NCBI GenBank assembly: GCA_021799535.1
Contig: JAJZAH010000004.1
Coordinates: 6,450-70,449 of the forward strand
Direction: 5' to 3'
Source: Nanobdellota archaeon
Lineage (GTDB): Archaea; Nanobdellota; Nanobdellia; Pacearchaeales; GW2011-AR1
DNA: 64,000 nucleotides
The translations under genes and the position numbers were made by a program. Shown piece by piece: positions 5,054 through 62,045 of this stretch. How positions within the stretch are numbered: position 1 is the stretch's first letter; the number at the start of each line of letters is the position of its first letter. Below the pieces are notes generated by a model that saw only the letters and a list, made by a program, of their open reading frames with translations, was not told the origin of the DNA and did not search any database.

Positions 5054-7371
5054 TGATAGATAAAGGAAACAGAAAAGCAATCGCCTTAAGCGAGATAGGA
5101 ATCCTCATAATCGGAATCTTCGCATTCATATGGATGATAAATGGACTGCCGGGGGTGAGTGCTGCGGGAGGAGGGATGCAAATCGGTTCTTCATGCATCG
5201 TCCCTGGTGTCAGCGCAGGAACATGCATCAGCACCTCTACATGTGCCAGTCAAGGTGGAAAATCTTATCCAAACTATTGCCCTGGTCTTCCAACGGACGT
5301 GCAGTGTTGCATCACACCGATAAATGCCCCAGCGAAAGGAACAACGGGTGGTTCTTTTGATTTCACTTCCACGGTAGCTGGTGCAGGTACTGGAGCCTTG
5401 GTGAATAGAGGAATAAACTTAGCGATTCCTCCAGTAAATCCGGCTCCTGCAAAGATAATAGAAACCGAATCGCTTCAAGCTCAAGCTGCAGATGCGGCAA
5501 AGAAGCTATCTGGGACACTTCCCCCTTCAGCGTTACCTTCAGTTGGATCTTCATCAAATTTTTGGGGAAAGACTTGGATTGGTGCTACGACATTTGCGAC
5601 AATCGCGGCATATGTAGGAGTTGCCGTCGCTGCTGTTGGGGGATATTTCGGTATGAAAGCTGTGGCGAGGGCTGTACACGCAAATTCTGACTGGACAGCG
5701 GCATTCGGAACAATAGGAGCGGGAGCGGGAGCAATAGCCGGAACATTAATATTGTTTGCAGGGAGCATACCTGTAGCGGGATGGGTCATAGCCGCCGCGG
5801 CAACAGTTGTTGCGGGAATCATAGGGATATTTTCAAAGTCAGTCCAAGAATCAGGGGTTGTTGTGTTTTACTGCAACCAATGGCAGCCTCAGACAGGCGG
5901 AGCAAATTGCGATCTTTGCAACCACCAGAATGTTCCCTGCTCACTGTACCAGTGCAAGAGTTTGGGCCAATCATGCGCATTCATACAAAGTGATCCTTCA
6001 AACAACGGAGCATCTTTCTGTTTTTACAACAATTCAAATGACATAAATCCTCCATTCATGGTGCCTGACAGCGGATCTCTCACGCCAGGGTATTATTACC
6101 AAAACTCAACCGCCGTCTCACCTCCAGATAGAGGTGTCCAGATAATAGACACAAAGACCCAGGATGGCTGCGCTCTTCCATTCAGCACGGTTTCCTTTGG
6201 AGTAAATACCCTCAATGAACTCACAAAGGCGCCTTATTACGCTGCATGCAAAGTCAGTTTCACAAGGATGAATTCATACGAAAGCATGAGCAATTATATA
6301 GACGGAAGCGGTCTTAAATTGAATCATACGATGATCTTAAAGGTCCCTGAAATAAACACCAGCGTAGGACAGTCGAATATGATATCCGCTTATGTGAGAT
6401 GCCAGGACGCCAACGGAAACGCTGACACAGGAAATTTCGTGTTCCAGATGTGTGTGCAAAAAGGTCCTGACCTCACTCCTCCAGTCATAGAATCCACAAG
6501 TTTGGATAACAACACCAAAGTCGCTTCCAACGTGACAAACGCAACCGTTGCATTCTATGTTAACAAACCTGCAATATGCAAATGGTCTTTCAAGCCGGGA
6601 GAAGATTACAGCAACATGGAAAATAACATGAGCTGCGCAAACGAATCAACACAGATAAACCTTAACCTTGATTATGCATGCTCGGCAAACCTTACAGGAA
6701 TCTCTCAAAGCAAGAAAACATTTTATTATGTGAGATGCCAGGACTTAACACCTCAGAGGAACACAAATATCCAGGACTATGTTTACTCACTTTCGTCCTC
6801 GCCCGCTCTTGTCATAAAGAATGTATCACCTAATGCAACAGTCATAAAAGACTCGACAAGCCCTGTCCCTGTCACAATCACAGCCTCGACAATAGGAGGG
6901 GCCTATGACGGCAATGCTGTATGCTCTTACAGCACAACAGGAAGGATAGGAGATTATGTGATATTTGACAACACCTCATCATACAAAAGTTCAACAACTG
7001 TATATGACACAGCCGGGCCTCAAACTTATTATATAAGATGCAGCGACCTTGGAGGCAACGTGGACACCAAAGTAATAAACTTCAATGTGAGTGTTGATAA
7101 TACCGCTCCCCTGATATCAAGAGCTTACTATGACAATGGCCAGATGAAGATAATAACAAGCGAGAAGGCGTCATGTGAATACTCAACATCAAGCTGTGAT
7201 TACAATTTCGGAGACGGCACAAACATAACAAGCTACGACGGGATAAACCATAACTTCCCATGGAACACTGCAACTGACCTTTATATAAAATGTGAAGATA
7301 TCTACGGCAATCTGCCTTCTACAGGCACATGCAGTATTATTGTAAGAGCTTACGGAAACCAAAACTCATAA
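5050..7371 (+). CDS. Large surface protein: Cys-knot-like N-domain, Gly/Ala-rich TM block, four tandem Cys-pair repeats
   Basis: 773 aa. The N-terminus is NRKA/IALSEIGILIIGIFAFIW, followed by a C-rich module ending CPGLPTDVQCC. A hydrophobic Gly/Ala-rich region sits at about aa 170-260. Four ~95-aa repeats each end in Y[VI][RK]C[QSE]D..GN. Confidence 0.6.
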   Translation: MMIDKGNRKAIALSEIGILIIGIFAFIWMINGLPGVSAAGGGMQIGSSCIVPGVSAGTCISTSTCASQGGKSYPNYCPGLPTDVQCCITPINAPAKGTTGGSFDFTSTVAGAGTGALVNRGINLAIPPVNPAPAKIIETESLQAQAADAAKKLSGTLPPSALPSVGSSSNFWGKTWIGATTFATIAAYVGVAVAAVGGYFGMKAVARAVHANSDWTAAFGTIGAGAGAIAGTLILFAGSIPVAGWVIAAAATVVAGIIGIFSKSVQESGVVVFYCNQWQPQTGGANCDLCNHQNVPCSLYQCKSLGQSCAFIQSDPSNNGASFCFYNNSNDINPPFMVPDSGSLTPGYYYQNSTAVSPPDRGVQIIDTKTQDGCALPFSTVSFGVNTLNELTKAPYYAACKVSFTRMNSYESMSNYIDGSGLKLNHTMILKVPEINTSVGQSNMISAYVRCQDANGNADTGNFVFQMCVQKGPDLTPPVIESTSLDNNTKVASNVTNATVAFYVNKPAICKWSFKPGEDYSNMENNMSCANESTQINLNLDYACSANLTGISQSKKTFYYVRCQDLTPQRNTNIQDYVYSLSSSPALVIKNVSPNATVIKDSTSPVPVTITASTIGGAYDGNAVCSYSTTGRIGDYVIFDNTSSYKSSTTVYDTAGPQTYYIRCSDLGGNVDTKVINFNVSVDNTAPLISRAYYDNGQMKIITSEKASCEYSTSSCDYNFGDGTNITSYDGINHNFPWNTATDLYIKCEDIYGNLPSTGTCSIIVRAYGNQNS

Positions 7372-35972: not shown

Positions 35973-38900
35973 TTAATGAACAATCAGATTAAGTTTTTTT
36001 TCCAAGCGATTAAATTTGTCTTTATTTTTCTCAAGTTGATAATTCATCATTTTCATCTCCCTATAAATAGAGTCATCCTTGATTCCTTCCTCAATCAAAG
36101 ACTTGGCTCTGCTCAAAATCCCCATCTTGTAGTCCCAACCAGAGACAATATCTATAACCGGATCCAAATAGGATCGAGTCGATAGTAAAAGTTCTCCTCT
36201 CCCTCCATATCCCCCGACGATAGCACCCCTAACAGAAGCGGATTTCCCAATCATCTTTCTATAAGCTATAGTAGTTTGTTTTCCGACATCAAGTATCCCC
36301 ATCTTTCCTCTTTCTGCAATCGCACCGTAGTGGTGCCTGTCACCAGCGAAGTAGTAAACAGCTCCCTCCCTCGTGCCTGTAGCCTGCGCAGAAATCATGC
36401 TTATCTCACTCCTTCCATGCCACATCTTGTGCGTCGCGACTCCTTTTATGACTCCGTTAGCTCCCGGGAGGTCAATCATCTCATAAGTGAATCCCTGACC
36501 CGAAGCACTCTGTCCTCTCCTCAGAAGATTCTGCTCCTGATACTTCCTGTCGAACATTGATGCGACTACATTCGCCTCATCTTCTGCATTCCCTCTATGG
36601 GACCCCATCCAGTGGTTCCCGGCTCCGATAAAAAGAGGGATCTTATTTTCCATCAGCTCAGCATTAGGAGCATACAGTACCTCCATGAATGTAGCTTTTT
36701 GATCTTCCGGCTTAAACTTCGGCTGACCTTCCTCGAACTCTTTTGCATAAATCTGAGTAGCTTCAAGTATCTCTCCGTCGCTTGCACCTTTCTCCCTCAT
36801 TCTGTGCTCAAGTATACTGAGTCTCTTCATGAATCCAGGAACGTCATTTGAAACCATAAGGAAGTCATTTGTAGCAGACTCTCTCTTTGAGTCATAATCC
36901 CTGTACCCAAGCTCACCATGCAAGGCTTCAGTCATGATGGAATATTTTATGTTGTTGAATCCGTTCGTCTGCAAGGCAACAAGTTGGCTTGCTCTTATTC
37001 CGTCGATGTTCGACACTCTTCCAGGCATGGAGAAAGAACCGAGATGCATATCATTCTGCAGAAACACACGATATATTTCAGGCCTGACCTCATCAAGCAA
37101 TGAGTTAATCTCAGCTTTTGTCTTCTCCGATTCTTTTGCCTTCCCTTCAAGTTCGAATTTTTTCAGGTCTGATTCGAGCTGAGAATACCTCTCCCCGTAT
37201 TTCTTTCCTATTCCCTTGAGATAATCATCATCTACAAATATAGATTCGTTGCTTTGGTCAGGATGCTGGATATAAAATACCGGTCCGGTCGTATTCCCCC
37301 CTTTCACAATCCTTTTTGCGGGCCATGTCCCCTTGTTGCCTTTCACCATCAGAGTCCCGAGTTTCTGAGTGTCGTGTCTCGTTGGAAGTTTTATGTAAGC
37401 TGTGATTATTGGAGCTCTCGAATATTCTCCCTGCACTGTCGTCTGATCTACAGTCATCTTTTCTTGCATATTATATCCGTCAGCGCCCCAACTCGTCAAT
37501 GCTATGTCAGGAAAAGCAAAATCTCTCTTGTTATGTTCTTTTTTCAATCTTGGTTTAACCTTTCCCTTTTTTACACCCTCGGAAATCTCGCTCTCATGAA
37601 AACTCAATAGTTCACTGAATGTATTAAGCACAGGTTCATTCGATTTTTGGGCGTTTGTCCTTGGCATTGAGAGGATAGTTGTCCCTATTGGCCTGTTAGG
37701 ATCCGCCTCCCTGCCTTCAAGAGAATACTGGGGATCCGGAATCTCTATATTGATTATATCATCCGTGTGAAGGAAAAACTTGTGGCTTTTGCCATTAATT
37801 TTGCCCACTTCGGAGAAAAGTGTCTTGTAAAAATCCTCGTTTATCTGCTTTGTAACCATATAAAATGCTTTCGCTTCAGTAGGTGAAATAGCGATTTTCT
37901 TTGTAAACCACGCTGGTCCTTCGGAGAATTCGGCCATCAAAGAGTTCTCAAACCTTTCGGCATCATGGATCTTGTCTTCCAGAGAATCTATCTTCTTCGA
38001 GTTGGCCACAAATCGGTCCTGGCTTGATTCATAGAAATCTTTAAGTTTATTAAAAGTTGTCAGGTCTTCATGAGCTTTTCGGGTAGTGTCGTAGAACAAA
38101 GAATCGAACTCTTCTTCTTTCCTTTTATCGTCAATCTTTCTTCCGCTCACTTCTTCGTACCTTTTCTTCACCTTATCGTGGAGAGATTTAAGCATCTTTG
38201 TATCTGTCTTTCCCCTTGTCCTGAAAAAACTATCCATTATCTTTCTGTAATCTTCCCCGCGCTCCGGGAATTCGCCTTCGCCAAATTTCTCTTTTCTGGT
38301 GCTTACATGAGAGTACACCCTTTCTCCGATGAGCTTCTTGATGAGATTCTCCGAAAGTTCAGATTTCAAGCCCTCTAATTTTCCTCTCCATTCAGGAAGT
38401 TTCTTAGTGGCATTTTTCATCTCTTGGTGAAGCTTCCTCAATTTAGGAAGAAGGGTATCAAGAGTCTCGCTCATATTTGCATAATCATTATAACTCCATT
38501 GGTAATGTATCGGAATTTCTTCAGGGATATTAGCAAAAAGAGGAGCAACTTCGTGAGCAACGCTTCTTGCGGCTTCCTCTGTTGAAGAAAGCGTGTTTAT
38601 AACATTCTGTTCAAGATTTTTATGGGCCCTTTCGCTGAGCTTAAAGCCTCCTAAATCCAAGATTTGGTTTATCTTTCTGAGTTCTTCCTCCTTCCCATTA
38701 TCACCATTTTTTCCTGATTTATCAAGCCCTGTCAAAAGTGCTCTCTGATTTTTTGCTTTCCCAAACATCTGGATGAATTCCGGCATCAACCCCCCCTGAA
38801 TAACATAGCTTGAGAGCATTTCATTAAGCCCCATAGACTGGCGCACAATCTTCTCTCCCAAAAAAGCATCATTGTTCGTGAAAAGAGTTCCCGTCCCCAT

Positions 38901-39362
38901 TTCTGCAGAGAACACGTGGATTTTAGGAACACGGTAATCACTAAGAGTATCATCCCACCTTAATTTATGCTGATTTACAACTGCGCTAATCAGTGCCTCT
39001 TCTTCCCCAAAAAGGCCATTAGCAGTAGGCAAATATTTAGGATCTGGAATATGCCAGACATCAGCAATTTTTTTCAGCTGGGATGAAATTTTCTGTTTTG
39101 CGACTTCAAGTTTTTTCGATTCATGCTTGAATGAGCTCGGCTTCTTCGGATCATAAGCTGATTCATCGAAACCGGACATTTTCATAGCAATCTGATTCAG
39201 GGTCGGAACAGGGCTCTGAAATATCGTCGGAGTTATGTAAATGTTTCCCGTGTCTCGGGGACTCATCTGCTCAATTGCTTTCAAAAGAACTCTGTCCTCA
39301 GGAGTTATAAGAAGCCGCTCTTCCAAAACTTTTGGAATTTTTCCGCCTCTTTTTACTTCCAT
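35973..39362 (-). CDS. Large (1129 aa) protein with C-terminal divergent metallophosphoesterase-like motifs
   Basis: The N-terminal ~700 aa is charged, helical and unknown. The C-terminal part carries, in calcineurin-fold order, LQNDMHLGS (DxH), GAGNHW (GNH), THKMWHG and AGDRHHYG. Confidence 0.45.
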   Translation of the reverse strand: MEVKRGGKIPKVLEERLLITPEDRVLLKAIEQMSPRDTGNIYITPTIFQSPVPTLNQIAMKMSGFDESAYDPKKPSSFKHESKKLEVAKQKISSQLKKIADVWHIPDPKYLPTANGLFGEEEALISAVVNQHKLRWDDTLSDYRVPKIHVFSAEMGTGTLFTNNDAFLGEKIVRQSMGLNEMLSSYVIQGGLMPEFIQMFGKAKNQRALLTGLDKSGKNGDNGKEEELRKINQILDLGGFKLSERAHKNLEQNVINTLSSTEEAARSVAHEVAPLFANIPEEIPIHYQWSYNDYANMSETLDTLLPKLRKLHQEMKNATKKLPEWRGKLEGLKSELSENLIKKLIGERVYSHVSTRKEKFGEGEFPERGEDYRKIMDSFFRTRGKTDTKMLKSLHDKVKKRYEEVSGRKIDDKRKEEEFDSLFYDTTRKAHEDLTTFNKLKDFYESSQDRFVANSKKIDSLEDKIHDAERFENSLMAEFSEGPAWFTKKIAISPTEAKAFYMVTKQINEDFYKTLFSEVGKINGKSHKFFLHTDDIINIEIPDPQYSLEGREADPNRPIGTTILSMPRTNAQKSNEPVLNTFSELLSFHESEISEGVKKGKVKPRLKKEHNKRDFAFPDIALTSWGADGYNMQEKMTVDQTTVQGEYSRAPIITAYIKLPTRHDTQKLGTLMVKGNKGTWPAKRIVKGGNTTGPVFYIQHPDQSNESIFVDDDYLKGIGKKYGERYSQLESDLKKFELEGKAKESEKTKAEINSLLDEVRPEIYRVFLQNDMHLGSFSMPGRVSNIDGIRASQLVALQTNGFNNIKYSIMTEALHGELGYRDYDSKRESATNDFLMVSNDVPGFMKRLSILEHRMREKGASDGEILEATQIYAKEFEEGQPKFKPEDQKATFMEVLYAPNAELMENKIPLFIGAGNHWMGSHRGNAEDEANVVASMFDRKYQEQNLLRRGQSASGQGFTYEMIDLPGANGVIKGVATHKMWHGRSEISMISAQATGTREGAVYYFAGDRHHYGAIAERGKMGILDVGKQTTIAYRKMIGKSASVRGAIVGGYGGRGELLLSTRSYLDPVIDIVSGWDYKMGILSRAKSLIEEGIKDDSIYREMKMMNYQLEKNKDKFNRLEKKLNLIVH

Positions 39363-39621: not shown

Positions 39622-40434
39622 TTATTCTTCATCACCTATCCACCAGTCCATGTCTGGAAGTGTCGAAGTATCTTTCCCTCTTGCCTTTAAATACCCTCTT
39701 GCAAGAAGATAGAAAATCAGCCCGAGACTTTTTCCACTCTTGTTATTTCCGATTATCACATAATCTGCCCCCTGAGAAAAGTTATTTGTCCCGCAGATCA
39801 TCAAAACCTTTTTCTTAACATCAAGTGTGTCTTTTAGCGCATTCTTGTCAAGCCAATGGTCCGATATAACCGTGAGCTCAGTCTCAAAGAAATCCTTAAG
39901 ATTCGTATTAGTCATGATGCCTGCAGGATATTTTTTCGTGAAAACCCTTATCCCAGTTACTTCACCGAATTTCATCGCTGCTCTCCAACCCGACTGCCTT
40001 TTGCACACCAAAATGATGTCTTCAGGCTCAAACTTTGAAAGGTATTCGATACCTCCCTTGAGTTTTTCATCAATCAGATCTGTGTTGAAAATGGCCAGCC
40101 CATCAGCCCTTCTCCTGTAAACGTAAGGCTTCATCTCAGGAGTCACAATCCTAGTTCCCAAGTATATCCCTGTCTTGACATAATCTTCAAGATCGATAAG
40201 CATATCTGCTTTTTTTTTGGCTTTAATTTCTTCTTTCAGAGATTCAGTATCAAGCTTTTCTACCTTCTCTTCCATAAGCTTCGCGGCCTTTTCTTTCAAG
40301 GCTCTCAGCTTATCTTCGGCAGATTTGCCTGGCCCTTTCGAAAATTCAGTCTCAAGAGATTCCGCTTCGGCGGCTTTTTCAAGCTCTGCACCAGACAGTT
40401 CTTCAGGCTCTTTTTCAGATTTTTTCCTTGCCAT
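39622..40434 (-). CDS. rps2: 30S ribosomal protein S2 (uS2) with an N-terminal KE-rich extension
   Basis: 270 aa with the uS2 core from about aa 78 (LIDLEDYVKTGIYLGT...PAGIMTN...). It is preceded by a ~75-aa Lys/Glu/Ala-rich segment. TTTATAAA lies ~25 nt upstream of the first ATG. Confidence 0.8.
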   Translation of the reverse strand: MARKKSEKEPEELSGAELEKAAEAESLETEFSKGPGKSAEDKLRALKEKAAKLMEEKVEKLDTESLKEEIKAKKKADMLIDLEDYVKTGIYLGTRIVTPEMKPYVYRRRADGLAIFNTDLIDEKLKGGIEYLSKFEPEDIILVCKRQSGWRAAMKFGEVTGIRVFTKKYPAGIMTNTNLKDFFETELTVISDHWLDKNALKDTLDVKKKVLMICGTNNFSQGADYVIIGNNKSGKSLGLIFYLLARGYLKARGKDTSTLPDMDWWIGDEE

Positions 40435-40826: not shown

Positions 40827-40966
40827 GCGCTAGTGGTCTAATGGTAGAATGCGAGCTTCCCAAGCGAGGGACACCTACGGTTTCCCACCGCTCTGTCTTC
40901 CATTCACGGGAGAAGTGTTTCCTGCGGAAAGAGCTCGCGACCCGGGTCCGATTCCCGGCTGGCGCA
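40827..40966 (+). tRNA. tRNA-Gly (CCC; UCC if the loop is phased 1 nt differently) with a ~69-nt intron
   Basis: Exon 1 is GCGCTAGTGGTCTAATGGTAGAATGCGAGCTTCCCA (40827-40862). The intron is ~40863-40931. Exon 2 is AGCTCGCGACCCGGGTCCGATTCCCGGCTGGCGCA. The acceptor, anticodon (CGAGC/GCTCG) and T (CCGGG/CCCGG) stems pair only after removal of the insert. Confidence 0.8.
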
Positions 40967-40967
40967 T
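40956..40967. repeat. attL core (3' end of tRNA-Gly)
   Basis: CGGCTGGCGCAT, identical to 50128-50139. Confidence 0.7.
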
Positions 40968-41037
40968 AAAACCTTTTTGACCATTTGTAGGGGATACGAT
41001 ACGGACTGATTAAAAATAAAGTCCGTCTAAAAAGGAC

Positions 41038-42180
41038 ATGAAAATAGATCCATACAAATGCAAAGAAAAGTACCTTAGATGGAAAAAGGAAACCCAAGAT
41101 GGAATCCCCAGACTAAGCAAGGTTAATTCAGACCTCATCCATCAATTTCTTTACGATATGGAAAGCGGTTTAAACATCTCTGGAAGCAAAAAGGGAGCAA
41201 GAAGTTATAATCGACTACTCGCTCTGAAAAATCGCCTCATAATTCTTTGTATGAAGTTTAACGATATATTCAATGTGGGGAACATCACTAATATCACGGA
41301 AGAACAAATTCATAGATTTTTTACGGATATGCGAAATGGAGATATAAGGAAAAATAGCGGAGAAGAGTATCGGGATGTTAGTGATCTGATAAAAGATTTC
41401 AAGACTTTTTGGCATTGGCATATGAAAGTAAGCAAAAAACGTGGGAAAGACATTTTAGATATAACCTTAGACCTTGATTTAAGCAAAGATAAACCAAAAT
41501 GGGTTTATTTGAACGAAGAGCAAGTCAAAAAGTTATCAAACTTGGCAAAATACGAATATAAGGTCTTGATAATGTTCCTGTACGATTCGGGCATACGTGC
41601 GCCTACGGAACTTATCAACGTAAAAGTGTCGGATTTCTATAATGATTTCAAGGAATTAAATATTCGTGACGAAATAAGCAAAACTTTCGGGCGAAGAATA
41701 AAAATAATGTTCTGTTCGGAAATGCTAAAACAATACGTAAAAGACAAAAAATTAAGCGAAAACGATCAATTGTTCAAAATAAATTACATTGTCGCTAATC
41801 GATATCTTAAAAGATTAGCGAAAAAAGTTTTCGGAGATAGAGAAAGTTTAGCCGGTGAACGATATTCAAAGTTAACACTGTACGATTTTCGCCATAATTC
41901 TTGCTGTTATTGGTTGCCGAAATATCCGTCAGAAATTGCGTTAAAATATCGTTTCGGCTGGAAAAAGTCGGATAAGATCCATTACTATTCGGAATTATTG
42001 GGGATGAGGGATACGATTTCCGAAGAAGATCTCCTTGTAGATGTGACGAAAACGGAGATTGAAAAAAGATTGATGATATCCGAAAAAAATAACGAAATTT
42101 CGAAAGAAAGAATTAAAGCTTTAGAGGAACAGATTATCGAGATCAAAAAGTGGGCTGAGAGGATAGAAGAAAGAATGTAA
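41038..42180 (+). CDS. Tyrosine recombinase / integrase
   Basis: 380 aa with LYDSGIRAPTELINVKVSD (box I Arg), LYDFRHNSCCYW (box II) and a late ...IHYYSE Tyr. It lies 70 nt from the tRNA 3' end. Confidence 0.7.
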   Translation: MKIDPYKCKEKYLRWKKETQDGIPRLSKVNSDLIHQFLYDMESGLNISGSKKGARSYNRLLALKNRLIILCMKFNDIFNVGNITNITEEQIHRFFTDMRNGDIRKNSGEEYRDVSDLIKDFKTFWHWHMKVSKKRGKDILDITLDLDLSKDKPKWVYLNEEQVKKLSNLAKYEYKVLIMFLYDSGIRAPTELINVKVSDFYNDFKELNIRDEISKTFGRRIKIMFCSEMLKQYVKDKKLSENDQLFKINYIVANRYLKRLAKKVFGDRESLAGERYSKLTLYDFRHNSCCYWLPKYPSEIALKYRFGWKKSDKIHYYSELLGMRDTISEEDLLVDVTKTEIEKRLMISEKNNEISKERIKALEEQIIEIKKWAERIEERM

Positions 42181-42188
42181 ATAATTCA

Positions 42189-43412
42189 TTAAAGTATTTT
42201 ATTAAAGTCAGGATTTTTTATCCGTGCCAATTCCTCCTCTCTTTTTTCCAGTATCCTAGGTTTATGCTCATTGTAATAATCTAAAATAAATTCGTAATTT
42301 ATATCTAAATCTCCTTGATCTCTTAATTTCTTCAATGATAAAAAAGTTTCCTGGCAAAATCTTCTAAAAAGATCCTCTTTCCCATATTGCATTATTGTAT
42401 TCAAAGACACATAATCTACTTCATTTTTGTTTAACTCATAATTTAAGCAAAAATCTAGCAGAGAATTTAAAATTTCATTATCTTTTTTTTCAAAAAGGTT
42501 TTCATTAAAGTAATCCAACGATAAACCCAAATTTATGCTTCCAACCATCCTTGTTAAACAAGCATAACACTTTCCGCAGTTCTTCCCCCACCTACTGGTA
42601 ATGCAAGAATGGGTCTTTGAGAGGATAGAATCATCAGAAATCAAACTCATCATTTCTGTCTTTGTAAAGTCTTCGAATGGGAGCACGATATCAATCGTTC
42701 TGTTTAATATGATTTCAGAGATTTCTTTTGATATTTTCAAGACTAACGGATGGGTGGTATAAGTGATCGTATCAAATGGGGCGAATTTTGGTTGTCGCAT
42801 TGTAACCCCACACTCAGAGATGATTATCCTACCAGCCTGGACAAAAGATGATAAAATTGCTCCATAAAGAACATATAAAAAACCCCTCAATTGGGAATAT
42901 CCCTTTCCCATAGAAGGAGCTAAAAACTTTACTAATTCTATGCCCCTCTCTCCTAACAACACCTTCCTTATCTCTTCAACTTTTTTTGTAATCCAGCCAA
43001 GATCTTGATGAGCTACGAAAAGCCCTAAAACTTCCCCGTAATAATCTTTGCTTTTTATTATTCCCAAAGTGCTATCAACACCTCCGGAAAATAAGCAAAT
43101 TGTACTACAATCCTTGAAAGTTGGGCTCTTCTTTTTATCCTTGAGATCTTTTTTTACTAGAACAAAAGAAATGTCCTCATACAAAACTTCAAGAACCAAG
43201 ACACGCAACAAATAAGAAATGCGTTTTATCTCATCCTCCGAGAGAGTGGAATAATAATCTATCCTAACTGTACCTATAGTTTTACCCTCTTTTATTTTCT
43301 TTTCTAGCATAAATAGAGTATTTGCTATCGAATAAAGTGTGGCTGAGATTTCATCTGACCAAATAAAATCCATTATCTTATTAGGAGATCCGTAAAAAAC
43401 TTTTTTTCTCAT
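42189..43412 (-). CDS. QueC-like PP-loop ATPase with N- and C-terminal extensions
   Basis: 407 aa. It has the PP-loop CLFSGGVDSTLG (aa 106-117) and C270-x8-C279-x2-C282-x2-C285 (SCITSRWGKNCGKCYACLTR), which is the QueC zinc-site spacing. About 100 aa precede the core and about 115 aa follow it, both unknown. Confidence 0.7.
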   Translation of the reverse strand: MRKKVFYGSPNKIMDFIWSDEISATLYSIANTLFMLEKKIKEGKTIGTVRIDYYSTLSEDEIKRISYLLRVLVLEVLYEDISFVLVKKDLKDKKKSPTFKDCSTICLFSGGVDSTLGIIKSKDYYGEVLGLFVAHQDLGWITKKVEEIRKVLLGERGIELVKFLAPSMGKGYSQLRGFLYVLYGAILSSFVQAGRIIISECGVTMRQPKFAPFDTITYTTHPLVLKISKEISEIILNRTIDIVLPFEDFTKTEMMSLISDDSILSKTHSCITSRWGKNCGKCYACLTRMVGSINLGLSLDYFNENLFEKKDNEILNSLLDFCLNYELNKNEVDYVSLNTIMQYGKEDLFRRFCQETFLSLKKLRDQGDLDINYEFILDYYNEHKPRILEKREEELARIKNPDFNKIL

Positions 43413-43747
43413 TTTTTTGCAAGTTCATCAATAACCTGTTTTGCTATCTTAAGCCTAATTTTCTTCAAATCATCTGATAATAGTTTATCCTCGAATAAGG
43501 AAACAAATTCTTCGGTTGTTCTAACCTCATATTTTTCAAGGTAATATTCCGTTTCTCTATCCAAAATTTTTCTTATTATTTCCTCTTTTATTTTCTGTCT
43601 TAGCTGCGTCTTATCCTCAATTGTGAGGGTGTTCACACTAGAAATTAATTCTGGAGATTTCAACATCTGTTCAACCATTGATTCTAAATTATAAGAACTA
43701 AACTCAAGGTATAGCTTACAAGCTTCTCTTAAGGGCATGGAGCTCAT
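43409..43747 (-). CDS. Small helical protein; unknown (operon member)
   Basis: 112 aa, Glu/Lys-rich. It has ATGA overlaps at both ends. Confidence 0.5.
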   Translation of the reverse strand: MSSMPLREACKLYLEFSSYNLESMVEQMLKSPELISSVNTLTIEDKTQLRQKIKEEIIRKILDRETEYYLEKYEVRTTEEFVSLFEDKLLSDDLKKIRLKIAKQVIDELAKK

Positions 43748-44109
43748 TTTTTGCCCCCCACAGTTTTTACTGCATTTTCTACAATGATGCGATCTACTTC
43801 CTTAGGAATCCTAATCTTATTCGATTTTTTTACATGAGACCAAGATTTAGAAATCTCTATCTTAAGGGAATCTAAATTGGTTATCTTTTTCCATTTTGAA
43901 TAATTTCTTATTATTTCTGGAAAGAATTTAGCGGAATAAGAGGAATATGAAATTGGTTTTTTCGATTGCACAAGGAGCGAAAAAGTTTGTGTGGGAATTT
44001 CTTTTATCTCTTTATTTTCAATATATGCCTTTATGGTCTTTATGCCTTTAGTTACTTCTCTAGATCCGCCCAAAAAATCCCGAGTAGGATACGATTTTCT
44101 TCCGCCCAT
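43744..44109 (-). CDS. Small basic protein; unknown (operon member)
   Basis: 121 aa. It begins MGGRKSYPTRDFLGGS and ends ...KTVGGKK. There is an ATGA overlap with the next gene and a 2-nt gap after the previous one. Confidence 0.5.
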   Translation of the reverse strand: MGGRKSYPTRDFLGGSREVTKGIKTIKAYIENKEIKEIPTQTFSLLVQSKKPISYSSYSAKFFPEIIRNYSKWKKITNLDSLKIEISKSWSHVKKSNKIRIPKEVDRIIVENAVKTVGGKK

Positions 44110-44111
44110 TT

Positions 44112-44708
44112 TTAATCCATTATGAGATCATTTAGATTATTTTGTATTAAGGATTCATGCTTTTTTGTCTTATCGAAGATAACAAACCCCCATAAAGTTA
44201 TAGCAAATAGTAAGATTTGAAATAAAATTATTAAAAAAATGTAAAAAGAAATACTAATCCCAAAAATATTTAATTGAAGTTGTAACAGATTTGAATTCTC
44301 AACTATTGATATGAATGTCCCCATTACAAAGAGAAAAATAAAAAGGGATAAAAACAGCTTTTGCTTCAAAGAGTCCAAACCACTTAATTCGTTAAGTTCT
44401 TCTTCATTCTTTTTTAGCTTATCAAATACCTCTTTTCCTCCTTTGGATAAGGTTGTCCCTTTCAAGATAGTCATTAACTCCTTGAGGTATCTTCCAGGAT
44501 CCATTTCCTTAGCTTTAGATACTAAATCTTTCAGCTTATTGTACTTCTCTTGGGTGAGCCTGGTTTTAGACAAAAAATGGGAGATTTTCCGTTTTGTCTC
44601 TTTAGAAAGCCCGAATATACTCTCACTCCACCCATAGATAGCAAAGAAGATTGCTAATGCGGATAACAGGTATACATCTCCTAGCATAACATTACAAGTT
44701 TTTAGCAT
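44112..44708 (-). CDS. Membrane protein (1 N-terminal + 2 C-terminal TM helices); unknown (operon member)
   Basis: 198 aa. The TM helices are DVYLLSALAIFFAIYGW, LFLSLFIFLFVMGTFISIV and ISFYIFLIILFQILLFAITLWGFVIF, with a charged helical middle. Confidence 0.55.
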   Translation of the reverse strand: MLKTCNVMLGDVYLLSALAIFFAIYGWSESIFGLSKETKRKISHFLSKTRLTQEKYNKLKDLVSKAKEMDPGRYLKELMTILKGTTLSKGGKEVFDKLKKNEEELNELSGLDSLKQKLFLSLFIFLFVMGTFISIVENSNLLQLQLNIFGISISFYIFLIILFQILLFAITLWGFVIFDKTKKHESLIQNNLNDLIMD

Positions 44709-44816
44709 TTTTACAGCTTTCTATAACTTTTAGTGCTTATGGGGACGTAAGACATTTATTAAGTAGGATAGTCTACAACATAAATTATTTTGTATTCTCG
44801 ATGATTTTCTTGAAAG

Positions 44817-45113
44817 ATGGAAATTGAAGAAACACTTGATAAAATTGAGGAACATTTAGAATTCATAAACAGGAAAATCGATGAAAAAGTCAGAGAAAAA
44901 GAAAATTCCAAGATTAAACCCCTTTGGAAAAAATCTGGAAAAAAGAATTCTCACCTGAATATGCTAATTGAAACCCCCTTGATGGAACAAGTTGAAAAAG
45001 AAGCTAATAAACAGGAGATTAGTGTTGCTGAATTTGTGAGGAGAAAATTAAGAGATGATCCGCAGTTAGATAGAATTGAGGGGAAAGTAGATTCTTTGCT
45101 GAAAATGGCTTAG
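44817..45113 (+). CDS. Ribbon-helix-helix (CopG-like) protein; possible controller of the R-M gene
   Basis: 98 aa. The C-terminal half HLNMLIETPLMEQVEKEANKQEISVAEFVRRKL follows the RHH pattern. It lies 34 nt upstream of the R-M gene. Confidence 0.5.
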   Translation: MEIEETLDKIEEHLEFINRKIDEKVREKENSKIKPLWKKSGKKNSHLNMLIETPLMEQVEKEANKQEISVAEFVRRKLRDDPQLDRIEGKVDSLLKMA

Positions 45114-45147
45114 AAATCCATAAAAAGTCTTATTTCTTGTCTGGGAC

Positions 45148-48048
45148 ATGGATAAAGAAAAGGCAAAAGAAAGAATTTCACAGTTTGTCAAAGAATTTTC
45201 CGAAATCCCAGAATCTGAACTTAACGATAAAAAAGAAGAGGACATTAAGTGGCTCTTTATTGAACCCCTACTCGACGCTTTAGGTTGGCAAAAAAAAGAC
45301 ATAGAAAAGGAGGCTAGTGTCTTAAATGGAAGAGCCGACTATCTTATAAGAAATGGGAATCAAGAGACATTAGTTATTGAGGCAAAGAAAACCAGTGTTC
45401 ATCTTTCTGAAGAAGAGGGTAGACAAGCCGTTTCATATGCTTATCACAGAAAAATAAAATTTGCCGTCCTCACAAACTTCAAATATATACGTGTTTATCA
45501 TGCACTTTCTAATGTAAGAAAAATAGATCATAACCTTCTGTTCTGGTTGGATTTCAAAGATTTCATAAGCAACTTCGATAAATTATGGCTTTTGTCAAAA
45601 GAAAGTTTTGATAAAGGGGAACTTGAAAAATTAATCCCTTCAAAAGACCAAAAAACTGCAGTTCCGATTGATGAAAGAATACTTGATGATTTATTACACA
45701 TCCGTGAGTGGCTTTCAAAAGAGTTGAAGTCAAAAAGGATGGAATTAAAAGACGGATATGTTGATGAAATCGTACAGATTTTTATTGATAGGTTAATCTT
45801 TATGAGGTCTGCTGAAGATAGGGGATTGGAAGCTGAAGATTTTCTACTCAAAATAATGCAAGCCGTCCAACAAGGCGAAACAGATAAAAATTTATGGTCA
45901 CTTTTAAAGGATCAGTTTATAAGGTTCGATAAAACTTACAATTCTAAACTTTTTGCGACGGGGATCTTAGAACAATATGGATTTTTCTCTGACGACGTTT
46001 TGAAAAAAGTCATCAAAACTATTTATTACGGATTGGAGTCAACTCAAGAAAAGTATATGTTCAATGAAATTCCTGGAGACCTCTTTGGTTCAATCTATGA
46101 ACAATATCTTGGGACAATTCTCTCTGGAACTGAAAAAAGAATTAAGCTGGAAGGTGGAACAGGAAAAAGGAAAAAAATGGGGATATATTACACCCCTTCT
46201 TATATCGTCGATTATATCGTGAAAAATACAGTTTATGAGTATATTAAAGACAAGTCCATTGATGATATCCTCGATGTAAAAATCCTTGATCCTGCTTGCG
46301 GTTCGGGATCTTTCATAACGAGAGCTTTCGTTGAGGTCTGTAATGTCATGAGGGATAAATTAAGTAGAGGAGAAAAATCAAAAAATTGGTCTTCATTTAA
46401 GGAACCGAGCAAAGTTCTTAACTTTTCACAAAAATCAACCATCCTAAAAAATTGTATTTATGGTGTTGATTTAGATGAGAAAGCGGTTGAGCTTGCTCAG
46501 TTAAATTTATTATTGAAATGTCTTGAAGGGGAGACAAGAGATTTAAAAAATAGAAAGCTACCAAACCTGCTGGATAATATAAAATGTGGCAATTCTCTTA
46601 TAGATGACCCTAAAATCTCTGATCATGCGTTTAACTGGAATGCTTCATTCAAAGATGTCATGAATGCTGGAGGTTTTGATGTTGTGATTGGAAACCCTCC
46701 TTATGTAAAAATACAAACATTTTCAGATTACGAAAAAAAGGAGAATGATTACCTCGTGAGCGTTTTTAAATCGTCAACTGGGAATTTTGATTTATATGTG
46801 TTATTTGTTGAAAAAGGGTTTAACTTGATAAAAGAAGGTGGTGTTTTGGGATTCATCCTACCCCACAAATTTTTTCAGTCCGAGTTTGGAGTCGGGCTAA
46901 GAACATTCTTACAAGAAAAAAAGGCCTTGAAGTCAATAATTGATTTCAGAGACAACCAAATATTTGATGGTGCAACTACCTATACTTGCTTATTATTTCT
47001 TAATAAGGCAAATAATAATACTTTTAAGTATTTGGGAATAAAATCAACAATTAATATGCCCCAAGTGTTAGAAAACCCAAGTGGATTTTCAAATCTTTTT
47101 TTTGATTCATTGGATTCAAAAAAATGGATTTTTTCATTGGATAACAGGATTTTAGACAAAATTAAAAAGGACTCACAATCAAACTTAGGAGAATTTACCT
47201 CTAAGATATTTCAGGGGATTGCTACCGGAGCAGATAAGATATTCTTTTTACAAAAAATTGAAGACAAAAACCACGATCTCAGGGTTTATTCAAGAGGACT
47301 GAACAAAGAGATTATTCTTGAGGAAGAACTTCTTAAACCTTTAATTAAAGGAAATATGCTAAAGAGATATTCCCCAATTAAAAGTGATGAGCTTATTTTA
47401 TTCCCTTATGCGTTGGACATTAATGGAAAAGTGAGACTAATACCAAGGGGTGATTTAAAGGAAAATTTTCCAAAAACATATGATTATTTGAAAAATTTTG
47501 AAAAAGAGTTGAGGGATCGCGAAAAAGGACGGTTTGACAATCAAAGATGGTACTGTTATTCACGAAACCAAGGTATGGGAGACATAAGTAAGAAGAAAAT
47601 ACTCACCCCAGACATTTGCAGTCAAGGAGAGTCCTCTTTAGATGTCGATGGAACTTTTTTAACAACAACAACTGTTTACGGCATCATACCTAAAAATAAA
47701 AATAATTTTGAAATTTTGTTGGCTATACTAAACAGTAAAGTTCTGGAGTACTTTATAAAAAATACTGGTAGTATACTTAGGGGTGGTTTTTATCGTTATA
47801 AAACAGCCTATTTGAAACCATTTCCTATTAAGGAAATTTCAGATAAACAAAGAGAGCAATTCATAAGATTAGTAAACCAGATGCTTGAACTCCAGAAAAA
47901 ATATCATGATGACAAAGTTCAAGGGCATGAGAAAGAGAGATTAAAGCAGCAAATTGATAATATTAATTATGAAACTGATCAGGAAGTTTACAAACTCTAT
48001 GGACTCACGCCCGAAGAGATAAAAATCGTCGAGGAGAGTTTAAAATAA
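45148..48048 (+). CDS. Type IIG restriction-modification enzyme (fused nuclease + N6-adenine methyltransferase + specificity region)
   Basis: 966 aa. The N-terminal HSDR_N/PD-(D/E)xK-like block is LLDALGW...GRADYLI...LVIEAKK. SAM motif I is ILDPACGSGSF and motif IV is VVIGNPPYVK. The C-terminal region is TaqI/Eco57I-like. Confidence 0.8.
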   Translation: MDKEKAKERISQFVKEFSEIPESELNDKKEEDIKWLFIEPLLDALGWQKKDIEKEASVLNGRADYLIRNGNQETLVIEAKKTSVHLSEEEGRQAVSYAYHRKIKFAVLTNFKYIRVYHALSNVRKIDHNLLFWLDFKDFISNFDKLWLLSKESFDKGELEKLIPSKDQKTAVPIDERILDDLLHIREWLSKELKSKRMELKDGYVDEIVQIFIDRLIFMRSAEDRGLEAEDFLLKIMQAVQQGETDKNLWSLLKDQFIRFDKTYNSKLFATGILEQYGFFSDDVLKKVIKTIYYGLESTQEKYMFNEIPGDLFGSIYEQYLGTILSGTEKRIKLEGGTGKRKKMGIYYTPSYIVDYIVKNTVYEYIKDKSIDDILDVKILDPACGSGSFITRAFVEVCNVMRDKLSRGEKSKNWSSFKEPSKVLNFSQKSTILKNCIYGVDLDEKAVELAQLNLLLKCLEGETRDLKNRKLPNLLDNIKCGNSLIDDPKISDHAFNWNASFKDVMNAGGFDVVIGNPPYVKIQTFSDYEKKENDYLVSVFKSSTGNFDLYVLFVEKGFNLIKEGGVLGFILPHKFFQSEFGVGLRTFLQEKKALKSIIDFRDNQIFDGATTYTCLLFLNKANNNTFKYLGIKSTINMPQVLENPSGFSNLFFDSLDSKKWIFSLDNRILDKIKKDSQSNLGEFTSKIFQGIATGADKIFFLQKIEDKNHDLRVYSRGLNKEIILEEELLKPLIKGNMLKRYSPIKSDELILFPYALDINGKVRLIPRGDLKENFPKTYDYLKNFEKELRDREKGRFDNQRWYCYSRNQGMGDISKKKILTPDICSQGESSLDVDGTFLTTTTVYGIIPKNKNNFEILLAILNSKVLEYFIKNTGSILRGGFYRYKTAYLKPFPIKEISDKQREQFIRLVNQMLELQKKYHDDKVQGHEKERLKQQIDNINYETDQEVYKLYGLTPEEIKIVEESLK

Positions 48049-48088
48049 AAAATAGAAATTTTCGAATCAATAGGAGTGTTAATTTTGC

Positions 48089-48661
48089 TTAGTGTTCAAT
48101 TTTTTGCATAAAATTTTTAGCACTTATAATTTTTACTTTAAATTCTTTTTCTAACATCTTACTTAAATACAAATCTTTATCTAACGTAACAAAATATTCA
48201 CATTTGTTTAATTCTGCCTGATAAATTAATATTATATCGAATGTTGAAAATCCTTCTTGGGATAATTTGTTTATTCTATTCATATCCATCTCTTCGTCTT
48301 TCATTGGTTCTACTCTATGTTCGGAATGATTAAAAAAAGAGAGTATAATCATATTTACCCCATCTATCTGTCCTTTGTTTAATCTTATATTCTCCTCTGC
48401 ATCTGCAAATTCCTTTACAGTATAGCCACTTTCCAAGATTATTTCATCTAATTTTAATTTCATTAAGATATCCCTCAGCTCCAATTCATTCCACCTTGTC
48501 ATTATATTTAAAAAATTCAATTTTTCAAAGCTGGTTAATAGAGGACGTAGCTTGGCCAATCTTTTTGGTAATGAGACGCCTTTATCCTCTTTATTATAAA
48601 TAAATGTAAATTTAACTAAAAGGTTGGTATCAAACATTATTCGCTTAGGAAAGTGTTCCAT
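48089..48661 (-). CDS. PIN-domain-like nuclease
   Basis: 190 aa with an N-terminal IMFDTNLL, an internal acidic residue (NELE), FDIILIYQA and a C-terminal FVTLDKDL. Confidence 0.5.
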   Translation of the reverse strand: MEHFPKRIMFDTNLLVKFTFIYNKEDKGVSLPKRLAKLRPLLTSFEKLNFLNIMTRWNELELRDILMKLKLDEIILESGYTVKEFADAEENIRLNKGQIDGVNMIILSFFNHSEHRVEPMKDEEMDMNRINKLSQEGFSTFDIILIYQAELNKCEYFVTLDKDLYLSKMLEKEFKVKIISAKNFMQKIEH

Positions 48662-48670
48662 CTTAAAAAA

Positions 48671-48817
48671 TTATCCAAAATATTTTCTTATTGCTTTTTT
48701 ACTGACAATTCGCTTTGGAAATCTTCTTTTATAACCCGAAACTCTTATTCTTTTAGAGCTGAAAATTCCTGTACTTATCTTTTTATAATGCCCCCTAACA
48801 TTCAGTCTTTTTTTCAT
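48671..48817 (-). CDS. Possible very basic 48-aa protein upstream of the PIN gene
   Basis: Hand-translated: MKKRLNVRGHYKKISTGIFSSKRIRVSGYKRRFPKRIVSKKAIRKYFG. It ends 9 nt before the PIN ATG. There is no homology support. Confidence 0.25.
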   Translation of the reverse strand: MKKRLNVRGHYKKISTGIFSSKRIRVSGYKRRFPKRIVSKKAIRKYFG

Positions 48818-48968
48818 ATTTTTTTTAGGTGTTTCTTCCTTAAAACCTTTTTCCTATCCCGTAACTCTTAAATAAAATCACTCCCTTGAATAATCATGAA
48901 AAACGTTATGAAATATGCCCGGCGGGACGCTCTCGGGGCTGTGGTTTACGTCGTGGCTGTCGCTCTCC

Positions 48969-49157
48969 TTATGTATTTTTTGAGTAGAATATCTTTCTTA
49001 GCTTCCTTAAAAGAATAATCTCTTCTTCCGTCGCCGGATCCTCAGCTTTACGTCTAAGGAGTTCAGAAATCGAAATTCCTAAAGATTCCGCTTCTTTCTG
49101 AAGTTTAGTCAGTTTTTCCGTCTCTATCTGAAGATGTATCTGAGAATTCATTCTCAT
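48969..49157 (-). CDS. Ribbon-helix-helix (CopG-like) protein
   Basis: 62 aa. IHLQIETEKLTKLQKEAESLGISISELLRRK follows the RHH pattern. Confidence 0.5.
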   Translation of the reverse strand: MRMNSQIHLQIETEKLTKLQKEAESLGISISELLRRKAEDPATEEEIILLRKLRKIFYSKNT

Positions 49158-49339
49158 TTTTACTCTCTAGCCTCCTCACTACTCTTTTTAAGATTTGTAT
49201 GGCTTCTTCCCCTACATCCTCTTTTATGTTTATCATATGGTATTAACCTAAAGTTAATAGTACCATGATTACTATATAAATCTTTCGCAGTATTTCCTTT
49301 AAGAGAATACTTTAAAAACTTGATTAATTATAATATTGT

Positions 49340-50095
49340 ATGAATAAGATCGGAAGAACACCTATAAAAATTACAGAAAGTTTGCCTTTTAGTGAGGTGA
49401 TTCTTTTGGTGGCTTCAGACCAAAATTATCCTCAAAAAATTGCAGAGATAAGAAAAACAAAACCTTCAGCAATTGTAAAACAATTAGATATCTTAAAACG
49501 TAAAAAATTTCTTAATAATCCTGTAAAAGAAAAGCTGTTAAATAAAACTCTTTACACTGTAAACTTTAATAAAATAAATGAAGAATTTATAGAGTTTATC
49601 AAAAAAAGATTAAACCAATCTCAAAGTTTAAATAAAAATTTGATACCGCTTAATATAAATTTAAATGTTTTAAACGATAAAAAGGTTTATAGAAATAGTT
49701 ATTTGACAGCTTTATTTAAAATTGTGTTTAATCGTGTTGGGTTATCACATGAAAAAGTTTCAATAAATCATTTATTTGACATAATGATTAAATACGATTT
49801 ATTATCAAAGTTTTCTTTAATCAATAGTGCATCAGAAGAAAGGGCTGTTGATAAGATTAATGAAGAGGGAAGAGCAAACTCAGGCAATCCAAGAGCCTTG
49901 ATTGATAATCAAACAGAAAGTATAAAAAAGAGCTTTGGTATAAATATCAAGAATCAAGGAGAAGAAATGAAAGAAATTGAAAATTTAAGAGAGATATGTG
50001 AACGTCTTAAAATAGATCCTCTTTTCCCAAATATTTCAACAGGATTTCAAACAAACAAGCTAAAAGAAATGCTCAAGAAAACGGAAAAAAACTAA
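49340..50095 (+). CDS. Winged-helix DNA-binding protein of the element
   Basis: 251 aa. The N-terminal YPQKIAEIRKTKPSAIVKQLDILKRKKFL is wHTH-like (ArsR/MarR-like). The rest is unknown. Confidence 0.4.
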   Translation: MNKIGRTPIKITESLPFSEVILLVASDQNYPQKIAEIRKTKPSAIVKQLDILKRKKFLNNPVKEKLLNKTLYTVNFNKINEEFIEFIKKRLNQSQSLNKNLIPLNINLNVLNDKKVYRNSYLTALFKIVFNRVGLSHEKVSINHLFDIMIKYDLLSKFSLINSASEERAVDKINEEGRANSGNPRALIDNQTESIKKSFGINIKNQGEEMKEIENLREICERLKIDPLFPNISTGFQTNKLKEMLKKTEKN

Positions 50096-50127
50096 TCCCC
50101 ATAATTTGGTCAAAAAGGTTTGCTCCT

Positions 50128-50139
50128 CGGCTGGCGCAT
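50128..50139. repeat. attR core (partial tRNA-Gly 3' copy)
   Basis: CGGCTGGCGCAT. It is not part of a complete tRNA. Confidence 0.7.
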
Positions 50140-61927: not shown

Positions 61928-62045
61928 GCCTGCATAGCTCAGTCGGTAGAGCGATTGCTTCGTAAGCAAAACAAGTTTTGCGCATTTCGCGAAACGAATT
62001 TGCAGAAAAAGCAATAGGTCGGGAGTTCAACTCTCCCTGCAGGCT
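61928..62045 (+). tRNA. tRNA-Thr (CGU) with a 45-nt intron
   Basis: Exon 1 is GCCTGCATAGCTCAGTCGGTAGAGCGATTGCTTCGTA (61928-61964). The intron is 61965-62009. Exon 2 is AGCAATAGGTCGGGAGTTCAACTCTCCCTGCAGGCT. The anticodon stem ATTGC/GCAAT forms only after removal of the insert. Confidence 0.85.

Follow-up and report, generated by a model that had tools for sequence, protein, structure and literature searches.

Work from 2025-2026 showed that in two anti-phage systems of bacteria, QueC-family enzymes attach a nucleobase to the N terminus of a protein. In type IV cyclic-oligonucleotide-based anti-phage signaling systems (CBASS), Cap9 places 7-amido-7-deazaguanine (NDG) onto Gly2 of the CD-NTase via ATP-activated 7-carboxy-7-deazaguanine (CDG) (bioRxiv 10.1101/2025.04.06.647259). 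In QatABCD, the tail of QatB sits in the active site of QatC, QatB depends on its Gly2, which is essential, and detection of an N-terminal peptide of QatB bearing NDG has been reported (PMC13279940, PMC13376578, PMC13639016). QatC carries extensions that are needed for Qat defense, the C-terminal one of which binds QatB (PMC13279940). Protection against phage by QatABCD requires the catalytic residues of QatC as well as Gly2 of QatB. Here we examine a 64,000-nucleotide stretch of archaeal DNA (the window; Nanobdellota archaeon, GenBank assembly GCA_021799535.1, contig JAJZAH010000004.1, positions 6,450 to 70,449 of the forward strand) that encodes, on its minus strand at 42189-44708, a four-gene module comprising a QatC-like enzyme, two small proteins that we call B and A, and a membrane protein with three transmembrane (TM) helices.

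We consider it probable, at roughly 0.6, that this is a Qat-like conflict module directed against viruses or mobile genetic elements, with the enzyme, B, and A as its core, and that it resides on an integrative island in the genome of a DPANN-type archaeon. By analogy, we propose that B and A together play the role of QatB in QatABCD. The module is real, conserved, and rare, and it offers a good experimental lead. Its enzyme clearly belongs to the QatC kind, and the chemistry proposed for it has already been published; the partner set of B, A, and membrane protein is new. Literature searches on DPANN, Qat-like, and QatC-like systems, with subscription-only papers outside their reach, returned no prior description of the clade or of the partner set, and a 2026 survey of the QueC family makes no mention of DPANN or Acidobacteriota members.

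A four-gene module with a QatC-like enzyme

The module consists of four translationally coupled open reading frames (ORFs) of 198, 121, 112, and 407 amino acids (aa).

Gene 1, 44708-44112, minus strand: three-TM membrane protein, ORF of 198 aa; putative effector or sensor
Gene 2 (B), 44109-43744, minus strand: 121-aa basic protein; proposed substrate at Gly2
Gene 3 (A), 43747-43409, minus strand: 112-aa helical protein; proposed partner of B
Gene 4, 43412-42189, minus strand: 407-aa QatC-like PP-loop ATP pyrophosphatase
Intergenic region, 44709..44816: presumed operon promoter region, between gene 1 and a divergent ribbon-helix-helix (RHH) gene

These coordinates reproduce those of an initial annotation made from the letters of the window, as do the junctions: a 2-nt gap (TAA-AA-ATG) separates the membrane protein gene from B, and ATGA stop/start overlaps join B to A and A to the enzyme. 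Gene 4 is the sole PP-loop gene in the window.

The enzyme is organized as an N-terminal α/β extension (residues ~1-100), a QueC-type core (~104-300), and a C-terminal helical extension (~300-407). Its core contains the PP-loop LFSGGVDS and the cysteine cluster C270-x8-C279-x2-C282-x2-C285, both of which had been recognized at the outset, together with a P-x4-TK motif and a T217-x-T219-T-H-P loop. Pfam limits its QueC match to residues 236-291. The top NCBIfam match is the QatC model NF041925 (E 6e-16, 58.3 bits; residues 90-289 against model positions 89-312 of 398), and the top match in PADLOC (2023 release) is likewise QatC (E 8.8e-12). A family profile built from 28 diverse homologs retrieved QatC first among PDB sequences (9vlk_A, E 1.4e-9, with the alignment extending into the N-terminal extension; 9zee_B, E 1.7e-8), with QueC (3e-6) and Cap9 (9nto_B, 5.6e-3) ranked behind. 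An AlphaFold2 model of the enzyme (pLDDT 91.8, pTM 0.91) was aligned by Foldseek with QatC chains 9y02_B and 9y01_B of QatB-QatC crystals over ~405 columns (E 4e-11, TM-scores of 0.63 and 0.60), whereas QueC and Cap9 aligned over the core alone (~200-220 columns). Because the predicted fold matches QatC over its full length and the matches to QueC and Cap9 stop at the core, both extensions of this enzyme of more than 400 aa appear to be QatC-type. The flanks that the initial annotation found unrecognizable thus align with QatC crystal structures in predicted fold, and its statement that the locus is unlike QatABCD fails for the enzyme, which is QatC-like: QatC is its nearest relative both in sequence-profile searches and in the predicted fold over the full length.

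The predicted active site carries the signature residues of QatC. Positions invariant among the 28 family members are S109, G111, D113, and S114; Q174-x-R176-x3-Y180; E200-x-G202; T217-x-T219-T220-(H221)-P222; P245-x4-T250-K251; and C270, G280, C282, and C285. The profile alignment places T217 and T219 of the window enzyme opposite T276 and T278 of Escherichia coli QatC. This Thr/Thr pair sets QatC apart from QueC and Cap9, in which a Tyr and an Asp read 7-deazaguanine/CDG (PMC13279940, PMC13639016). The motifs SGGxDS, ExG, HP, P(x)4TK, and GxCxxC(xx)RR have been given for QatC (PMC13329287) and are kept in the enzyme family; the signature made up of Thr/Thr, SGGxDS, ExG, HP, and P(x)4TK is invariant across all 28 members. 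By contrast, the equivalog models for QueC score far below their cutoffs on the window enzyme (TIGR00364, 25.6 against 150 bits; PRK11106, 18 against 378), which rules against an ordinary QueC, an outcome that the initial annotation had allowed for.

Two small proteins encoded upstream of the enzyme

B has a pI of 10.1, begins MGGRKSY, and ends VGGKK. The initial annotation had drawn attention to both ends of this basic protein; the MGGR start is kept family-wide, but the VGGKK end is not conserved. An MG[GS][RN] start is found in 87 of 91 database members and in 70 of 73 distinct locus members (~96%), the exceptions being truncated or mis-called ORFs or spurious matches. M1, G2, and R4 are invariant, and G3, G14, and W90 nearly so. 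Conservation is therefore concentrated in the tail, with five of the six most conserved positions lying within the first 14 residues. In an AlphaFold2 model (pLDDT 89), residues 1-8 form a flexible tail that precedes a five-helix body, so the partner would present an unstructured N-terminal segment whose conserved Met-Gly motif offers Gly2 as a candidate acceptor.

Word-index searches gave 18 matches for B and three for the membrane protein, as both evolve fast; an exhaustive profile search and locus-based hidden Markov models were used instead. The B family is rare, with 74 clusters among 1.84 billion representative proteins, and its members are nearly all 118-124 aa long and matched from residue 1. 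Profiles of B and A searched against PDB sequences at E values up to 10 returned no QatB and nothing meaningful, and Foldseek comparison of the B model with the PDB found nothing significant (top match, CpaF helices, E 1.5). Scans of the membrane protein, B, and A with Pfam, NCBIfam, and PADLOC produced noise alone; these collections hold no family models for the three partners.

The window copy of A is a 112-aa helical protein with a pI of 5.4. It is mildly acidic, as had been noted, but acidity is not conserved in the family, where the pI runs from 4.8 to 9.8. Starting from the window sequence, gene-3 ORFs were found in 10 loci alone, and an iterative search joined 23 of 24 into one family. 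A is a conserved, fast-evolving family, always encoded between B and the enzyme. Both small ORFs belong to conserved families, contrary to the possibility raised at first that they are non-conserved. Two database proteins are B-A fusions, P0197 (210 aa) and P0188 (246 aa), with hhalign values of 92% and 72% to the A profile, and in one of the sampled loci, L047, the gene for the former directly precedes that for the enzyme. Because such fusions exist, one of them beside the enzyme, B and A probably act as one unit.

The membrane protein

Gene 1 encodes an N-terminal TM helix that ends in a conserved GW, a charged soluble helical segment of ~80 aa, and two C-terminal TM helices followed by a short tail with a conserved Glu; the hydrophobic segments are those of the initial annotation. 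The topology is kept among 52 family members, in which W20 (51/52), G123 (49/52), and E178 (49/52) stand out, numbered from Met8. The 198-aa ORF is present as described, but translation most likely starts at Met8 (ATG at 44687) to give 191 aa, since homologs begin with MLGDVY and this protein has 191 aa in the database. Acidobacteriota members carry signal-like N-terminal extensions.

The module recurs in archaea and bacteria

A large database contains 228 homologs of the enzyme. The archaeal ones belong to Woesearchaeota, Nanoarchaeota, Aenigmatarchaeota, Pacearchaeota, Thermoplasmata, and Nitrososphaerota, and the bacterial ones to Acidobacteriota/Terriglobia and Clostridia ("Eubacteriales"), with one contig binned as Patescibacteria. 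We sampled 116 loci, and the 50 distinct ones with an intact enzyme gene and at least 1.5 kb of upstream sequence serve as the denominator here. B (~120 aa) and A (~86-117 aa) lie immediately upstream of the enzyme on the same strand in 47 of the 50, and the membrane protein gene is found in 39. In the three exceptions, either the enzyme gene is truncated or decayed, or a divergent B-like ORF falls below threshold. B and A overlap by 4 nt in 28 of the 47 loci. A gene order common to 47 distinct loci from both domains, with this overlap at so many of the junctions, makes a chance arrangement unlikely. The operon is real, conserved, and island-borne, and its genes keep company with homologs of the 407-aa protein, a point on which the initial annotation had left its proposal exposed.

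Neither a scan of 2.9 million viral contigs nor a search of annotated phage records yielded any relative, so the module does not appear to be virus-borne. The integrase family of the window (41038-42180) adjoins the module in L014 (20-586), and in L017 the same family (5611-6765, minus strand) lies beside an N-terminally truncated QueC-like gene that has none of the three partners. This sharing suggests that the module travels with the integrase and sometimes decays. L014 (JAHILT010000013.1), a 4.1-kb contig with the complete module (53% identity), carries the bin label "Patescibacteria group bacterium"; since its close relatives are all DPANN archaea, this may reflect misbinning or transfer between domains.

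The module has restriction-modification (R-M) or defense genes as neighbors in the window and at no fewer than eight other distinct loci.

L001: type IIG enzyme
L002: N6/N4 methylase, on an element with an integrase and type IV secretion, resembling an integrative and conjugative element (ICE)
L006: type I S subunit
L008: methylase and ResIII helicase
L012: methylase and PD-(D/E)XK nuclease
L013: type I S subunit and Schlafen/AlbA_2-Fic
L022: C5 methylase
L027: N6/N4 methylase

Variants that lack the three-TM protein carry other genes.

L084 and L087: RelA/SpoT-domain protein abutting B
L088, L090, and L032: AAA_16+TPR STAND-like ATPases
L091: Prok-E2 and ThiF-JAB pair, 12 nt upstream of B
L005: DUF6602 protein
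L047: small holin-like TM protein (weak holin match), with a B-A fusion

Further QueC-like subfamilies, with enzymes of 468-648 aa, were seen at five loci. In three metagenomic loci (L098, L104, and L111) the enzyme is preceded by a partner of 259-277 aa that starts MGH[IV]R[IL]G..., and in a fourth (L115) by a 119-aa partner starting MGHRKLIF and a 118-aa second gene. The fifth (L117), on plasmid NZ_CP084474.1 (2585-4918) of the cultured haloarchaeon Natrinema sp. DC36, encodes a 159-aa partner that starts MGSASASS, an acidic protein of 141 aa, and a QueC-like protein of 479 aa whose PP-loop, SDGLDS, is degenerate. Because these subfamilies, too, have upstream partners that start with Met-Gly, the data suggest that pairing of a QueC-family enzyme with a Met-Gly partner is a general rule.

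Proposed mechanism and alternative explanations

In the mechanism that we infer, Met1 of B would be removed to expose Gly2. Removal of Met1 by methionine aminopeptidase is expected when glycine occupies position 2. The flexible basic tail of B (GGRKSY...) would then enter the QatC-like active site while the extension domains and the long active-site loop of the enzyme hold B-A in place. ATP-dependent adenylation of a carboxylate, most likely CDG, would be followed by transfer to the α-amine of Gly2, so that the modification would probably be a deazaguanylation. The modification state of B-A would in turn control an accessory protein, here the three-TM protein, which would probably serve as a membrane-damaging abortive-infection effector or as a membrane-sited sensor. 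Other lineages would wire the same core to RelA/SpoT-like, STAND ATPase, E2/E1-JAB, or DUF6602 proteins. The initial annotation had guessed that the enzyme conjugates a ligand onto a glycine of one of the small proteins; this fits the near-invariant N-terminal MGGR, because that motif matches the published glycine modification in the QatC-QatB and Cap9-CD-NTase pairs, while the C-terminal glycines that it also considered are a local feature of the window copy. A role in defense is favored by the R-M neighbors, by the tRNA/integrase and ICE-like elements, and by the immune-type accessory genes of the variants without the three-TM protein.

Several points weigh against this interpretation. The enzyme falls short of the NF041925 equivalog cutoff for QatC (58.3 against 280 bits). 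Its cysteine spacing is QueC-like (Cx8C) and not QatC-like (Cx19C): the QatC zinc motif C(x)19CGxCxxRR is replaced by C-x8-CGKCYAC-LTR, and most relatives, which read C-x8-N[DE]GxCxxCxxRR, have lost the second Cys of that Cx8C pair. B and A show no detectable homology to QatB by sequence, profile, or PADLOC, nor does the B model by fold, so the analogy with QatB is one of layout and of a seven-residue motif. The three-TM protein matches no known domain in Pfam, NCBIfam, or PADLOC, and an effector role for it is a guess. The enrichment of defense neighbors was judged by inspection, with no statistical background. Genes for CDG synthesis (QueD/QueE) were found neither in the window nor in any sampled neighborhood. 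DPANN archaea often lack CDG-synthesis pathways. For these two reasons, the ligand may not be CDG, and the Thr-Thr site made one group suspect a different substrate for QatC (PMC13279940). A wider proposal, that the B-A-enzyme trio is an undescribed cross-domain family of immune "switches" in which an N-terminal mark on a small pair gates interchangeable effectors and sensors, is a tentative one; it would accommodate a mark other than NDG in DPANN archaea and a general rule of Met-Gly partners.

The same chemistry could instead serve to maintain the island or to respond to stress, with a membrane toxin restrained by modified B-A, as in addiction or toxin-antitoxin modules, to the benefit of the mobile element. 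The module is indeed found on mobile DNA, a tRNA/integrase island in one case and an ICE-like element in another, the same integrase family adjoins it in L014 and stands beside the truncated gene in L017, and the three-TM protein is small with a holin-like layout, a resemblance echoed by the weak holin match of the TM partner in L047. We nevertheless find this unlikely, as R-M genes adjoin the module in many unrelated contexts, the accessory gene is exchanged for STAND ATPases and E1/E2/JAB genes that are typical of immune sensors, and the nearest characterized relative, QatBC, protects against phage (PMC13279940). The addiction and defense interpretations are not mutually exclusive. There is also a slim chance that the enzyme acts on a small molecule or nucleic acid, for instance to produce a modified base or a nucleotide signal, and that B and A are scaffolds or regulators. 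The chemistry of the QueC superfamily is chiefly that of small molecules (PMC13329287), QatC activity was not reconstituted in vitro (PMC13279940), and the very basic B (pI ~10) could bind nucleic acid; against this, B is most strongly conserved at its extreme N terminus, with the Gly2 that is the acceptor in two characterized systems, the canonical QueC substrate motifs are absent (as reflected in the TIGR00364 score), and no base-exchange enzyme of the tRNA-guanine transglycosylase (TGT) type is encoded nearby.

An operon that combines a small protein with a membrane protein and an ATP-dependent modifying enzyme would also be in keeping with a protein-maturation cluster resembling those for ribosomally synthesized and post-translationally modified peptides, in which B is a precursor, acylated at its N terminus, that the membrane protein then exports or anchors, and the signal-like extensions of the Acidobacteriota membrane proteins point the same way. 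We judge this very unlikely: B is predicted to be a folded 120-aa helical protein with no leader/core organization, neither a protease nor an ABC exporter is present, and the membrane protein is dispensable, being swapped for cytoplasmic immune-type genes in 8 of the 50 loci. A housekeeping QueC or archaeosine-pathway enzyme with unrelated neighbors is effectively excluded. Although many homologs are publicly named "7-cyano-7-deazaguanine synthase" and the Cx8CxxCxxC spacing is that of QueC, the QueC models score far too low, the CDG-reading Tyr/Asp pair is replaced by Thr/Thr, the extensions are of the QatC type, the gene sits on a low-GC mobile island with strictly conserved partners, and QatC itself, in E. 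coli, fails to complement a queC deletion (PMC13329287).

The island and its surroundings

The Qat-like module is carried on a mobile island of ~9.2 kb (40827..50139) in a window whose 16S-tRNA(Ala)-23S operon and archaeal RNase P mark it as archaeal.

40827-40966: intron-containing tRNA, left island end (Rfam, 40 bits; missed by ARAGORN)
41038-42180: tyrosine integrase (Pfam match)
44817-45113, plus strand: RHH gene, divergent from the module
45148-48048: type IIG R-M enzyme (PADLOC, E 5e-174)
48089-48661, minus strand: 190-aa protein with an N-terminal MFDTN motif
48969-49157, minus strand: 62-aa RHH protein, upstream of the 190-aa gene
Within the island, third small gene after the R-M enzyme: 251-aa gene
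50117-50139: partial tRNA 3'-end repeat, right island end (12 nt exact, direct copy)

The G+C content of the island is 0.323 (40967-50139), against 0.40 in both flanks. The Rfam tRNA, the integrase, the repeated tRNA 3' end, and this low G+C content bear out the earlier description of a tRNA-integrated island. The 190-aa neighbor, once labeled PIN, has no match in Pfam, PADLOC, or a PDB sequence search; together with the 62-aa RHH protein encoded upstream of it, this protein is a possible candidate for a PIN-like toxin/antitoxin pair.

At the right end of the island (50105-50139 compared with 40945-40983), the exact direct copy of the tRNA 3' end reads CGGCTGGCGCAT. Just before this repeat there is an inverted copy of the sequence that trails the tRNA, TTTGGTCAAAAAGGTTT compared with AAACCTTTTTGACCA, an unusual arrangement for an att site. 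The window has two intron-containing tRNA genes, at 40827-40966 and 61928-62045, both of which were found by Rfam and missed by ARAGORN; the putative anticodon of the first is UCC (Gly). A 1129-aa ORF (35973-39362, minus strand) lies between the rRNA operon and a putative ribosomal-protein-uS2-like gene (39622-40434).

Comparison with known systems

In keeping with the initial annotation, Pfam and PADLOC scans of the island genes found no QatA (KAP NTPase), QatD (TatD), TGT-like protein or Cap10, CD-NTase, QueD/QueE, or dpd gene; QatA and QatD are likewise absent from the sampled homologous loci. Its view that the locus is unlike Dpd, QatABCD, and type IV CBASS therefore stands for the first and the last, and has to give way for QatABCD, where the enzyme is QatC-like.

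Canonical QatABCD loci do occur among the distant matches (L101, L105, L109, and L118, a Calothrix plasmid), and these encode a KAP-type ATPase, a QatB of ~260 aa starting MGTSKS[YM], QatC, and TatD. We considered B and A as the two halves of a split QatB homolog and rejected the idea, as hhalign against QatB of three canonical loci gave a probability below 1%.

With QatABCD (Gao et al. 2020; QatB-QatC structures 9y01/9y02, 9vlk, and 9zee), the module shares the predicted QatC architecture of α/β N-terminal extension, QueC core, long active-site loop, and helical C-terminal extension. The Thr-x-Thr-(T)HP signature is common to both, as are SGGxDS, ExG, P(x)4TK, and GxCxxC. Each has an upstream partner with a flexible Met-Gly tail (MGGRKSY here, MGTSKSY in QatB) and a helical body, the enzyme and partner form a conserved core with variable accessories, and the setting is a defense island. 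The differences are as clear. The window encodes no QatB homolog of ~260 aa beside the enzyme; the partner here is two small proteins (~120 and ~90-115 aa) that are occasionally fused and amount to ~230 aa when summed or fused. A three-TM protein, or a RelA/SpoT-like, STAND, E2/E1-JAB, or DUF6602 protein, takes the places of QatA and QatD. The enzyme is ~17-18% identical to QatC, with Cx8C in place of Cx19C, and most copies of the module come from DPANN or other archaea or from Acidobacteriota.

Type IV CBASS (Cap9, 9nto; Wassarman et al. 2025) resembles the module in that a QueC-family enzyme targets the N-terminal glycine of a partner by way of an ATP-dependent acyl-adenylate, within MGGS in the CD-NTase and, as proposed, within MGGR here. 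At ~185 aa, Cap9 is a minimal enzyme in which the Tyr/Asp of QueC is retained, whereas the window enzyme has 407 aa and Thr/Thr; 9nto_B matches it weakly by sequence and over the core alone by fold. The CD-NTase substrate, Cap10 (TGT-like), and CBASS effectors are all absent here. Canonical QueC (PF06508 cluster 1) shares the PP-loop Rossmann core and the Cx8CxxCxxC spacing, but the window enzyme is nearly twice as long, lacks the canonical catalytic motifs, scores below the cutoffs of the QueC equivalog models, has no QueD/QueE neighbors, and is accompanied by dedicated protein partners on a mobile island. Dpd systems, in which DpdA (TGT-like) and DpdB accompany DpdC within a large dpd cluster, differ as well, for the island genes include no TGT-like or other dpd gene.

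Set beside these systems, the module is a compact, divergent version with a much smaller candidate substrate (121 aa) and an obvious candidate output in the membrane protein, and natural variants swap that output for RelA/SpoT-like, STAND ATPase, or E2/E1-JAB genes. If the mechanism proposed here is correct, it would extend the principle of N-terminal tagging to archaea, including genome-reduced DPANN lineages. With this module one could test directly if 7-deazaguanine is the ligand in every case, and a QatC-like enzyme preceded by a partner that starts with Met-Gly would provide a simple sequence rule for finding more systems of the Qat and type IV CBASS kind.

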